In this document: in pieces, positions 25,446 through 29,111 of the stretch
Layout: each line of letters begins with the position of its first letter
How positions within the stretch are numbered: the first letter of the stretch is position 1
DNA from: Escherichia coli
GTDB lineage: Bacteria; Pseudomonadota; Gammaproteobacteria; Enterobacterales; Enterobacteriaceae
Assembly: GCF_050920415.1 (NCBI RefSeq)
Contig: NZ_CP169309.1
Reading direction: 5' to 3' (one strand)
DNA length: 64,000 nt
The notes under the pieces: model-generated
What the model was told of the DNA's origin: nothing
The model's database searches: none
Seen by the model: only the letters and a program-made list of their open reading frames with translations
Position numbers and translations under genes: made by a program

Positions 25446-25547
25446 GTGTCAGCGCCAATGATATAAGACAGTAATTCACCATTTGGATTGTCCGCTCCAC
25501 CCAACATGTTGTTTCCTTAAGGTTCCTACACCACAAAGGGAACACTC

Positions 25548-26719
25548 ATGCTGAGCAGAGAGGACTTTTACATGATAAAGCAAATGCGCCAGCAAGGTGC
25601 GTATATTGTTGATATTGCCACTCAGGTTGGTTGCTCTGAGCGGACTGTCAGACGGTACCTGAAATACCCGGAACCTCCGGCCAGAAAAACACGCCACAAA
25701 ATGGCCAAACTCAAGCCGTTCATGGACTATATCGACATGCGTCTGGCTGAGAATGTCTGGAACGGCGAGGTCATCCTGGCGGAAATCAAAGCGATGGGTT
25801 ATACCGGTGGCCGTTCCATGTTGCGTTACTACATCCAGCCCAAACGTAAGATGCGGCCATCGAAGAAAACGGTTCGCTTCGAAACTCAGCCCGGTTACCA
25901 GCTACAGCATGACTGGGGAGAAGTTGAGGCTGAGGTTGCCGGGCAACGATGCAGGGTTAACTTCGCGGTTAATACGCTGGGGTTCTCACGTCGCTTCCAT
26001 GTCTTCGCGGCACCAAAGCAGGATGCTGAACATACCTATGAGTCACTGGTCCGCGCCTTTCGCTACTTCGGCGGCAGCGTGAAAACCGTGCTGGTCGATA
26101 ACCAGAAAGCCGCAGTGCTGAAAAATAACAACGGGAAGGTGGTGTTCAACTCCGGGTTCCTGCTGCTGGCCAATCACTATGGCTTCCTGCCACGGGCCTG
26201 CCGTCCACGAAGGGCCAGAACCAAAGGTAAGGTGGAACGGATGGTGAAATACCTCAAGGAAAACTTCTTCGTCCGGTACCGCCGGTTCGACAGCTTCGCC
26301 CATGTTAATCAGCTACTGGAGCAGTGGATGGCTGACGTTGCCGACAGGCGGGAACTTCGCCAGTTCAGGCAGACACCGGAACAGCGCTTCACGCAGGAAC
26401 AGGTGCATCTGCAGGCGCTGCCAGGTACGGACTTCGATACCAGCTACTTCGATATCCGTCATGTCTCCTGGGATGGCTATATCGAGGTTGGCGGGAACCG
26501 TTACAGCGTGCCGGAAAGCCTGTGTGGCCAGCCGGTATCAATACGGATCTCGCTGGATGATGAACTGCGATTTACAGTAATGAGCAACAGGTAGCATCGC
26601 ACCGTCTCTGTTCGGCTGTATACGGCTGGCAGACCGTGCCGGAGCATCACGCCCCACTCTGGCAGCAGGTCAGTCAGGTGGAACACAGGCCGTTGAGTGC
26701 CTATGAGGAGCTGTTGTGA
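25548..26719 (+). pseudogene. istA: IS21-family transposase IstA, frameshifted near the C-terminus
   Basis: MLSREDFYMIKQMRQQG... HTH plus DDE domains; ORF stops at 26594 while the conserved C-terminus (...WQTVPEHHAPLWQQVSQVEHRPLSAYEELL) continues in another frame to the TGATG overlap with istB. Confidence 0.8.
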
Positions 26720-27512
26720 TGCATGAACTGGAGACACTGCTGGGTCGTCTTAAAATGGAACATCTGGGCTACCACGTTGAAAGCCTGCTGGAGCAGGCGG
26801 CCAAAAAAGAACTGAACTACCGCGAGTTCCTGTGCATGGCGTTGCAGCAGGAATGGAACGGGAGGCATCAGCGCAGTATGGAGTCCCGGCTGAAACAGGC
26901 CCGCTTCCCGTGGGTCAAAACGCTGGAGCAGTTCGACTTCGGCTTCCAGCCAGGTATCGATCGTAAGGTCGTCCGTGAGCTGGCCGGGCTGGCGTTCGTG
27001 GAGCGTAGCGAGAACGTGATCCTGCTGGGTCCGCCTGGTGTGGGTAAAACGCACCTGGCAGTCGCTCTCGGGGTAAAAGCGGCGGACGCTGGTCATCGGG
27101 TGCTGTTCATGCCACTGGATAAGCTGATCGCCACACTCATGAAGGCAAAACAGGAAAACCGGCTGGAAAAACAGCTACAGCAGCTTGGTTATGCCCGGGT
27201 ACTGATACTGGATGAGATAGGCTATCTGCCGATGACCCGCGAGGAAGCCAGTCTGTTCTTCCGGTTGCTGAACCGTCGATATGAAAAAGCGAGCATCGTG
27301 CTGACGTCAAATAAAGGGTTCGCCGACTGGGGAGAGATGTTCGGCGATAACGTGCTGGCAACGGCAATCCTGGATGACTGCTACACCACTCAACCACACT
27401 GAACATCAAAGGAGAAAGCTACCGGTTAAAGGAAAAACGCAAAGCGGGAGTGCTGGCAAAAAACGCCACGCCAATCAGTGATGATGAAATGGCGGCAAGC
27501 GGACAACATTAA
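26716..27512 (+). pseudogene. istB: IS21-family helper ATPase IstB, frameshifted near the C-terminus
   Basis: Walker A GPPGVGKTH; ORF ends at 27402 but [44 protein letters not shown] continues in another frame to 27512. Confidence 0.8.
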
Positions 27513-29111
27513 TGACCAATAGCGGACATTAAAAATGGCGAAAAACGGCCAATAATCTTGGCGTTGACACACGTCCGTCGTCCGGTCGTTAAGCACCTCC
27601 GTGTCCATGTTCTTCTGCGCGTGGATATACACCTGCTCACTGTCCGTCGCATCCTCGAAACGCAGTTCATTAAAGCCGCTTCCTTTATAGGTCTTCGAGC
27701 GGATGGTCATCTGCGTCCGCGTGCCCGGTAAATCCCCCGGTGAACGGTTGTCTTCATGGTAGGTCCGCCCCGTCACAATGGGCTGGTCCGGGTCGCCGTT
27801 CAGAAAGTCCACTATCACTTCCTGACCCACACGCGGTATCGCCAGATTGCCGAACCCCGGTCCCGCCCATGCCTGCGACACCCGTATCCAGCATGAACTC
27901 TCCTCCGTCATCCCGTGATAACGGTCCCAGTGAAACTTCACCCGTACCCGGCCATGTTCGTCGCAGAATATCTCCTCGCCCTTCGGCCCGGTCACGATGG
28001 CACTCTGCGGGCCGTCCACCTTCGGCTTCGGCAGCGGCGCGTGACGCCACGTCCTGTCCGCCGGTATCACCTCAAACTGATTGCTCAGCGTCGTTCCCTC
28101 GCCGTGACTCCCGTGCAGCGCCTGCGGCTGTTCTCCCCGCAGTGTGCTTCCCACAACCTGCCATTCCCGGTTCAGCGTCCCTGAGGGATGGCCCGTCAGC
28201 CGGAACCGCGTTCCCGGCCACAGTCGCGCCGTGTTACACACCCCGCTCGCCGTCTCCGCCCCGTTCCGCCACCCTTCCGTCTGGTAACGCGCAAAGTCCT
28301 GGCCGTGCTGCTCATCCTTGAAACGCCCCGGATAATCAAATATCTCGTACTGCGTTCCCTGCCCGTTCAGGCTCTCCCCGGCATGGCTGTAGTACCCCGG
28401 CCACCCCGGCGTTTTGAACATATAATCCTGCGTCTCCACCGACGCCACGCTTATCTGCGCACGGTAACGAAACTCGCTGATGTACTCCGTCGTTCCCCCG
28501 GTCGTCGTGTCCGGGTTAAACGCCAGCGCCCCCATTCCCGTCAGCCCCGCCACGTCATCACACACCGCCAGCTTCTGTTCCGGCCCTTCCTGACTGCAGC
28601 GCTCATAAAAGAAGATACCTTCCTCCGCCCACAGCCGGGTCAGGAACGCCAGGTCGCTCTCCCCGTACTGCACGCAGAACTCCCGCGCCGGGTGCGCCTC
28701 ATAGAACAGCGGCATCCACGCCGTCACCCCGTTCTCTTCAAGAAGCTGTGCTGATATCGTCTGAATGTCCTGCTGCTGGAAGATACGGAAGTTCTGCCGT
28801 AACCCTGCCCGCCACAGCGGCGGGCTGATGCTCAGGGAATAACGCATCTGCCAGTCGTTGTTCTCACCGAGCTGCACCTCCGTCACGATACCGCTGACGT
28901 AACGCTGTGCAGTGTCGCCCTGCCAGACCGTCAGCAGCGCGCTTTTCTCCAGAAAATCCTCCGCCGTCAGGTCAGACAGTCCGCTGGCGATATCCACATC
29001 CAGGATGAACGGTGTGCAGTGGTGCTGGTACAGACGGAAGCTCACCACTGCCGTCGCCATCTCCACAATACCGTCCACCGACAGCGTGAAACGTAATCCT
29101 TCTGAGGACAT
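27426..29111 (-). pseudogene. vgrG: vgrG N-terminal fragment (gp27/gp5-like), truncated by IS insertion at 27569/27570; ORF reads through into IS sequence
   Basis: VgrG-like N-terminus MSSEGLRFTLSVDG...; authentic sequence ends ...NDRTTDV at the IS junction. Confidence 0.85.

Follow-up and report, generated by a model that had tools for sequence, protein, structure and literature searches.

Frame breaks in an ISEc62 copy interrupting vgrG of Escherichia coli are most likely sequencing or assembly artefacts

Results

An insertion sequence (IS) of the IS21 family interrupts vgrG in the 64,000-nucleotide stretch of Escherichia coli DNA that was analysed (the window), and both of its genes, istA and istB, read with a frame break. 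We consider it highly probable that these breaks and two nearby substitutions are sequencing or assembly artefacts, most likely absent from the DNA of the cell. The lesions lie on methylation motifs, they are absent from the orthologous copy of the element in a close relative, and errors of the same class occur in an rRNA gene and a group II intron of the same window. Judged from sequence comparison, what interrupts vgrG is an ordinary, probably intact copy of the already known ISEc62 (IS21 family).

Identity of the element and its insertion site

The element occupies positions 25447–27569 on the plus strand (2,123 bp as read) and was assigned to ISEc62 by alignment and by its 99.8–99.9% identity to annotated ISEc62 copies. 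With megablast, it matched hundreds of annotated copies over the full length at 98.2–99.9% nucleotide identity. The annotated copies ('IS21-like element ISEc62 family transposase / helper ATPase IstB') were found on chromosomes and plasmids of E. coli, Shigella, Klebsiella and Salmonella. The closest intact copy, on plasmid pla1 of Escherichia sp. 10290 (locus L002), was used as the reference. Identity of the window copy was 99.8% to L002 and 98.3% to the copies of E24377A, all annotated 'IS21-like element ISEc62 family'.

Comparison of the ends identified terminal inverted repeats on the left (TGTCAGCGCCAA, 25447–25458, plus strand) and on the right (TTGGCGTTGACA, 27558–27569, plus strand), and the left repeat agrees with the reverse-complemented right end at 11 of 12 positions. 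A 4-bp target-site duplication, CACG, lies on either side, at 25443–25446 and 27570–27573. The element therefore has the 5'-TG...CA-3' terminal inverted repeats and the short direct target duplication of the IS21 family. Duplications of 4 bp also flank five of six other ISEc62 copies.

The interrupted gene, vgrG (tssI), lies on the minus strand. Its N-terminal part was assigned to 27574–29111 from the annotation of E. coli MFDS1022581 (hereafter MFDS) and from reconstruction, and its ORF extends into the right end of the IS, to 27426. The C-terminal part, with gp5-like trimerisation repeats and an acidic tail, was assigned to 24753–25446 from ORFs, the MFDS annotation and reconstruction. When the IS and one copy of CACG were removed in silico, the minus-strand ORFs 27426–29111 and 24753–25445 joined into a single ORF encoding a 743-aa VgrG. 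Together with the ISEc62 match and the CACG duplication, this bears out the claim, made in a preliminary description of this DNA, that an IS21-family element had inserted in vgrG.

Reading frames and domains of istA and istB

The istA gene (25548–26719, plus strand) encodes HTH, rve/DDE and Mu-transposase C-terminal domains. From the ATG at 25548, it reads for 348 aa to a stop at 26594, compared with 390 aa in intact copies. The conserved C-terminus (IYSNEQQVASHRLCSAVYGWQTVPEHHAPLWQQVSQVEHRPLSAYEELL, followed by the stop) can be followed in another frame as far as the TGA at 26717–26719, and this out-of-frame part corresponds to the last 49 residues of the intact IstA. Within the TGATG at 26717–26721, the TGA of istA overlaps the ATG of istB (26719–26721), a layout that is also annotated in intact copies. 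The istB gene (26719–27512, plus strand) encodes an AAA+ helper ATPase of 264 aa when intact. In the window, it has a 1-nt gap at approximately 27375 and reads to a stop at 27402, and a conserved 44-residue tail runs in another frame up to the TAA at 27510–27512. The preliminary description had reported these stops, the out-of-frame continuations of both genes and single-nucleotide breaks nearby. All of this was confirmed, with the breaks located by alignment at approximately 26568 and 27375.

IstA matched HTH_23, rve and Mu-transpos_C_2 in Pfam and NF033546 ('IS21 family transposase', 280 bits, cut-off 160) in NCBIfam. IstB matched IstB_IS21 in Pfam (296 bits) and NF038214 in NCBIfam (297 bits, cut-off 200). 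Both breaks fall inside conserved domains, at profile position 50 of 73 in Mu-transpos_C_2 and 214 of 238 in IstB_IS21.

In the IS21/IS5376 family, IstA is a DDE transposase acting on the terminal repeats, IstB is an AAA+ ATPase that selects and remodels the target DNA, and the two genes are translationally coupled. Both ISEc62 proteins aligned with their counterparts in the IS5376 IstA–IstB system (structures 8b4h, 8q4d, 8q3w and 5bq5), which belongs to another element in another host and is kin to ISEc62 at the family level only. The intact IstA aligned with the solved IS5376 IstA (8b4h) over residues 1–388 (E = 2 × 10⁻⁸²), and the intact IstB with the solved IS5376 IstB (8q3w, 5bq5) over residues 14–242 (E = 2 × 10⁻⁶⁶). 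Since these alignments run across the cut-off regions and the breaks cut conserved domains, the shorter ORFs are not the native protein ends, a possibility that the preliminary description had raised against its own reading. By analogy, the ISEc62 copy in the window would be expected to transpose as any IS21-family element does, with a DDE transposase and an AAA+ target-selecting helper.

The element had also been described as IS100-like. IS100 of Yersinia pestis is a member of the IS21 family and shares the two-gene layout, but its IstA and IstB are only 35% and 47% identical to those of ISEc62. The IstA of IS100 is natively 340 aa long, and its alignment to the ISEc62 IstA stops near residue 300. 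Given this low identity and the early end of the alignment, the short IS100 protein provides no evidence for a native end at 348 aa here. Such an end, by analogy with IS100, was considered as a candidate and rejected on the basis of the 35% identity and the IS5376 alignment through residue 388.

Lesions in the window copy

The ends, the istA–istB organisation, the TGATG overlap and the 4-bp target duplications are the same in the window copy as in other ISEc62 copies. As read, the window copy differs from them in being 2 nt shorter than intact copies, which measure 2,125 bp, and in the two frame breaks at GATC sites, which are most likely artefacts. The lesions were placed by alignment to five intact or near-intact ISEc62 copies. 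Compared with L002, only four positions differed in 2,125 bp, namely a G>A substitution at 26172, a deletion at 26568, a C>T substitution at 26572 and a deletion at 27375.

In istA, the 1-nt deletion at approximately 26568 and the adjacent C>T at 26572 change GCGGATCTAC to GC-GATTTAC. GGATC is thereby read as GATT with one G missing (26567–26572, plus strand). In istB, the 1-nt deletion at approximately 27375 changes GGATCGAC to GGAT-GAC, so that the C of GATC is missing (27373–27376, plus strand). Both lesions destroy a Dam site. The third change, G>A at 26172 (plus strand), was identified by alignment, converts the Dam site GATC to AATC and replaces Asp with Asn in IstA. The four differences thus form three clusters, each destroying one of the seven GATC (Dam) sites of ISEc62. 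The chance of all three clusters falling on GATC (including one flanking base on each side) was approximately 8 × 10⁻⁶. The preliminary description had pointed to possible homopolymer errors at the breaks; neither deletion lies within a homopolymer, and both lie in methylation motifs. The deletion at 27375 was present in one of 126 matching records and the deletion at 26568 in none. If the changes are artefacts, the cell DNA would read GCCGATCAC at 26172, GCGGATCTAC at 26568–26572 and GGATCGAC at 27375.

Comparison with other copies of ISEc62

On the MFDS chromosome, ISEc62 is inserted at the same point of vgrG, between identical flanks and with CACG duplicated as in the window. The whole window aligned to this chromosome in two blocks (99.92–99.95% identity), and identity over 18026–29127 was 99.88%. 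The insertion in vgrG is real and common to both genomes. The insertion of ISEc62 into this type VI secretion system (T6SS) gene, with its 4-bp target duplication, would predate the split of the window strain and MFDS.

In the alignment, none of the four window changes was present in the orthologous vgrG::ISEc62 copy of MFDS, and istB is annotated as intact in that copy. The flanks of the insertion were approximately 99.99% identical, with about two SNPs per 18 kb. Six differences separated the two genomes within the 2.1-kb IS, approximately 30 times the number expected from the flanking SNP rate. The MFDS vgrG copy has istA lesions of its own, a TA deletion at the equivalent of 25800–1 and a C>A substitution. 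The TA deletion lies outside any methylation motif. As a lesion of istA away from such motifs, it makes real decay of this copy conceivable and counts against an explanation by artefacts.

ISEc62 occupies four places on the MFDS chromosome, the vgrG copy and at least three more. The deletion at 27375 was also present in the copy inserted in the fimbrial usher gene (fimD), and the C>T at 26572 in the copy inserted in yibH; neither copy is orthologous to that of the window. In the yibH copy, istB is frameshifted by a different lesion, an A6 homopolymer deletion. The MFDS assembly also has homopolymer deletions in rRNA and at the equivalent of 21996, and its 'frameshifted' ISEc62 copies are therefore suspect as well. 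Recurrence of an identical change at non-homopolymer sites in unrelated copies and not in the orthologue is what a site-specific systematic error, and not inheritance, would predict. A spreading lineage of istB-frameshifted ISEc62, proposed from the deletion shared with the fimD copy, was rejected because istB is intact in the orthologous vgrG copy. Real alleles, the 27375 deletion for example, could in principle be passed from one IS copy to another by gene conversion, which also counts against artefacts.

The intact L002 copy has an orthologue on a plasmid of Escherichia sp. HH154_1D, a further ISEc62 copy that is short by 5 nt and in which neither istA nor istB is annotated. This plasmid copy contains six motif-associated lesions, all at CCWGG, in addition to one A6 homopolymer deletion. 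Some assemblies of ISEc62 thus do contain pseudo-frameshifts linked to such motifs.

Changes of the same class elsewhere in the window

The rrnH operon of the window differs privately from both MFDS and K-12 at eight positions (seven events). The 23S rRNA gene contains five private indels, at 60286, 60570, 60757 (CCAGG), 62170 and 62373 (GATC), and private substitutions at 60858 and 61074–5 (CCTGG to CCCTG). Three of the rrnH events fall on CCWGG or GATC. A comparison with 37,941 E. coli 23S gene copies gave no better match to the 2.2-kb 23S stretch of the window than 99.6% identity. Within a group II intron, ltrA is split by a private 1-nt deletion at 18572 (a C in a CCAGG site). MFDS carries this intron at three places, and the sequences in other genomes that match it over its full length have 1 nt more.

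Seven of 11 window-derived events fell on Dam or Dcm motifs, which cover 2.7–3.9% of the sequence (binomial P = 3 × 10⁻⁹ to 4 × 10⁻⁸). The other four lie off these motifs and count against an explanation by artefacts. All eight window-derived indels were located in the approximately 8.3 kb of multicopy DNA and none in the approximately 55.7 kb of unique DNA (Fisher's exact test, 8 × 10⁻⁸). The only indel relative to MFDS in unique DNA, a G7/G6 run at 21996, is a homopolymer deletion on the MFDS side, since other genomes have G7.

Discussion

Errors of the kind proposed here have been described for nanopore sequencing. Approximately 70% of Oxford Nanopore (ONT) consensus errors in an enterobacterial genome were located in Dcm motifs, followed by homopolymers (Wick et al. 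2019, PMC6591954). Modification-induced, strand-specific errors, mostly C>T and G>A, have been reported with GATC and CCWGG listed as E. coli motifs (2024 Genome Research, PMC11610603). The two substitutions at GATC in the window are G>A and C>T, the same types as in that report. This class of consensus error at methylation motifs is also described in PMC8812927. In PMC9295152 and PMC8486125, Dam and Dcm are named for methylation calling only, with no usable statement on consensus errors.

Like these nanopore errors at Dam (GATC) and Dcm (CCWGG) motifs, the lesions in the window lie on the G or C of GATC or within CCWGG. Nanopore errors at methylation motifs persist in repeats, and the lesions in the window are likewise limited to the IS, the rRNA operon and the group II intron. 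From this likeness in sequence pattern we infer the sequencing platform and polishing history of the assembly, as well as the status of the breaks as errors. The breaks would have arisen at Dam-methylated GATC sites as consensus errors in a long-read (nanopore-type) assembly, and would have outlasted polishing because ISEc62 is multicopy, so that short-read or consensus polishing would have been unable to correct them. Such a failure of polishing in repeats would confine the errors to the IS, the group II intron and the rrn operon.

The preliminary description favoured genuine decay, in which real 1-nt deletions in istA and istB after insertion would have left a non-autonomous relic that needs IstA and IstB in trans. 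The breaks are indeed present in the sequence and cut the conserved Mu-transpos_C_2 and IstB_IS21 domains. IS copies do decay, the MFDS orthologue has a different istA frameshift, and both deletion alleles are rare among matching records. We nevertheless regard decay as unlikely. All of the changes fall on GATC sites, and the orthologous copy, despite nearly identical flanks, has none of them. The excess of differences within the IS over the flanking SNP rate, the implausible private 23S rRNA indels in the same assembly and the limitation of indels to multicopy DNA also argue against it. Decay would be expected to leave lesions that close relatives share in their orthologous copy, or that at least fit that copy, and MFDS has none of the four. 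It would further be expected to leave lesions unrelated to error motifs in an otherwise clean assembly; what was found were clusters on GATC, private indels in 23S and ltrA at Dam and Dcm motifs, and indels in repeats only. The evidence thus favours the caveat in the preliminary description, which named sequencing errors as a possible source of the breaks. Its suggestion that loss of autonomy would fix the vgrG disruption is weak even if the lesions are real, because the close relative has at least three further ISEc62 places, including copies with intact istA or istB, that could supply the proteins in trans.

Real defective alleles could alternatively circulate, with an istB-frameshifted ISEc62 lineage mobilised in trans or spread by gene conversion. 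The presence of the 27375 deletion in the fimD copy and of the T at 26572 in the yibH copy, as well as the four ISEc62 places on the MFDS chromosome, is consistent with this explanation. The orthologous vgrG copy lacks both changes, so that conversion would have to be very recent. The restriction to GATC and the 23S and ltrA indels at Dam or Dcm motifs would be left unexplained, and the homopolymer deletions of MFDS make its frameshifted copies suspect as well. We therefore consider circulating alleles very improbable. We attach equally little weight to a third explanation, in which the lesions are real and Dam and Dcm sites in multicopy DNA (IS, rrn operon and group II intron) are hotspots of 1-nt deletion in this lineage. 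If this were true, aberrant MutH or very-short-patch processing during recombination between repeats would be a possible route, and ISEc62 copies with defective istA or istB would be kept and mobilised in trans.

The main value of the artefact reading lies in quality control. Where this assembly shows pseudogenes in IS elements, rRNA operons or introns, these calls should not be taken as biology, and the same caution applies to related public assemblies, those of MFDS1022581 and the HH154_1D plasmid among them. Such calls can be tested simply by asking if their lesions sit on GATC or CCWGG and if they occur in multicopy DNA only. In all likelihood, the element has not decayed as claimed. The biology of this locus is already known: ISEc62 interrupts a T6SS vgrG, and the insertion is common to the window strain and a close relative.

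Sequence differences between the window and other genomes

Two multicopy elements of the window contained differences that were absent from the comparison genomes. The group II intron reverse transcriptase/maturase gene ltrA (17988-19504, minus strand) was broken into two ORFs of 205 and 318 aa because a C was missing from a CCAGG site, a Dcm methylation motif (CCWGG), at 18572. The gene was unbroken in the close relative MFDS1022581, which harboured multiple copies of the ltrA group II intron, and the full-length matches to the intron in other genomes were 1 nt longer than the window's copy. 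The second element was the 23S rRNA gene (approximately 60160-63060, minus strand) of the rrnH operon (59816-64000), in which the window differed from both MFDS1022581 and K-12 by five private indels (60286, 60570, 60757, 62170 and 62373) and by private substitutions, located at 60858 and 61074-5. Of these events, three were at CCWGG or GATC, the latter being the Dam motif. None of the E. coli 23S rRNA gene copies was more than 99.6% identical to the window's 23S stretch. The private 23S rRNA indels and substitutions are almost certainly assembly errors.

In unique DNA, single-base differences from MFDS1022581, located in or beside methylation motifs, were observed at 50144 (CCTGG to CCTAG) and at 38978 (C/T, 2 nt upstream of a GATC). 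These could be real SNPs, produced by deamination of 5-methylcytosine, or residual errors.

ISEc62 copies in other assemblies

As read, istA of the orthologous ISEc62 copy in MFDS1022581 had a frameshift of its own, a TA deletion in GGGTTATACC; a C>A change was also read in this copy. The differing stretch (7774-7850 of the MFDS1022581 locus L006) is equivalent to window positions 25800-25877, and neither change was located at a methylation motif. The rRNA genes of the MFDS1022581 assembly contained homopolymer deletions at the equivalents of window positions 62819 and 63895, and at 21996 this assembly had a G6 run versus G7 in other genomes. The ISEc62 copy on plasmid pla1 of Escherichia sp. 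HH154_1D (501-2620 of locus L010) was 5 nt short and had neither an annotated istA nor an annotated istB. Six lesions in this copy, of which three were deletions and three were T>C changes, lay within CCWGG sites, and an A6 homopolymer deletion was additionally present. This set of lesions is a textbook Dcm-motif error profile.

Gene content and possible rearrangement of the vgrG region

The window started within a second flagellar (Flag-2-like) gene cluster (1-7300), with genes for a sigma-54 activator, fliM/N, fliPQR, flhB and flhA, as identified by correspondence with the MFDS1022581 annotation. This cluster was followed by hicAB, fadE and the type VI secretion system (T6SS) island, in which Tle1 and Tli immunity genes were present.

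At the vgrG region, the window lacked approximately 11.4 kb of MFDS1022581 sequence, comprising cargo genes (PAAR, a Tae4 amidase and a DD-endopeptidase), a second vgrG, an IS2 and the greater part of a third vgrG. The window sequence was of the vgrG-1 type up to a crossover at 28752-28762, within the vgrG N-terminal region, and of the vgrG-3 type beyond it. This switch points to recombination between homologous vgrG paralogues or, alternatively, to an assembly collapse. The resulting IS-interrupted hybrid was the sole vgrG beside hcp in the window's T6SS cluster.

The truncated vgrG ORF crossed the target duplication and continued within the IS, which it entered at the right end (27426-27573). 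The same read-through ORF was annotated as an intact tssI in MFDS1022581. Through this read-through, a VgrG fragment of about 513 aa would gain about 48 residues encoded by the IS.
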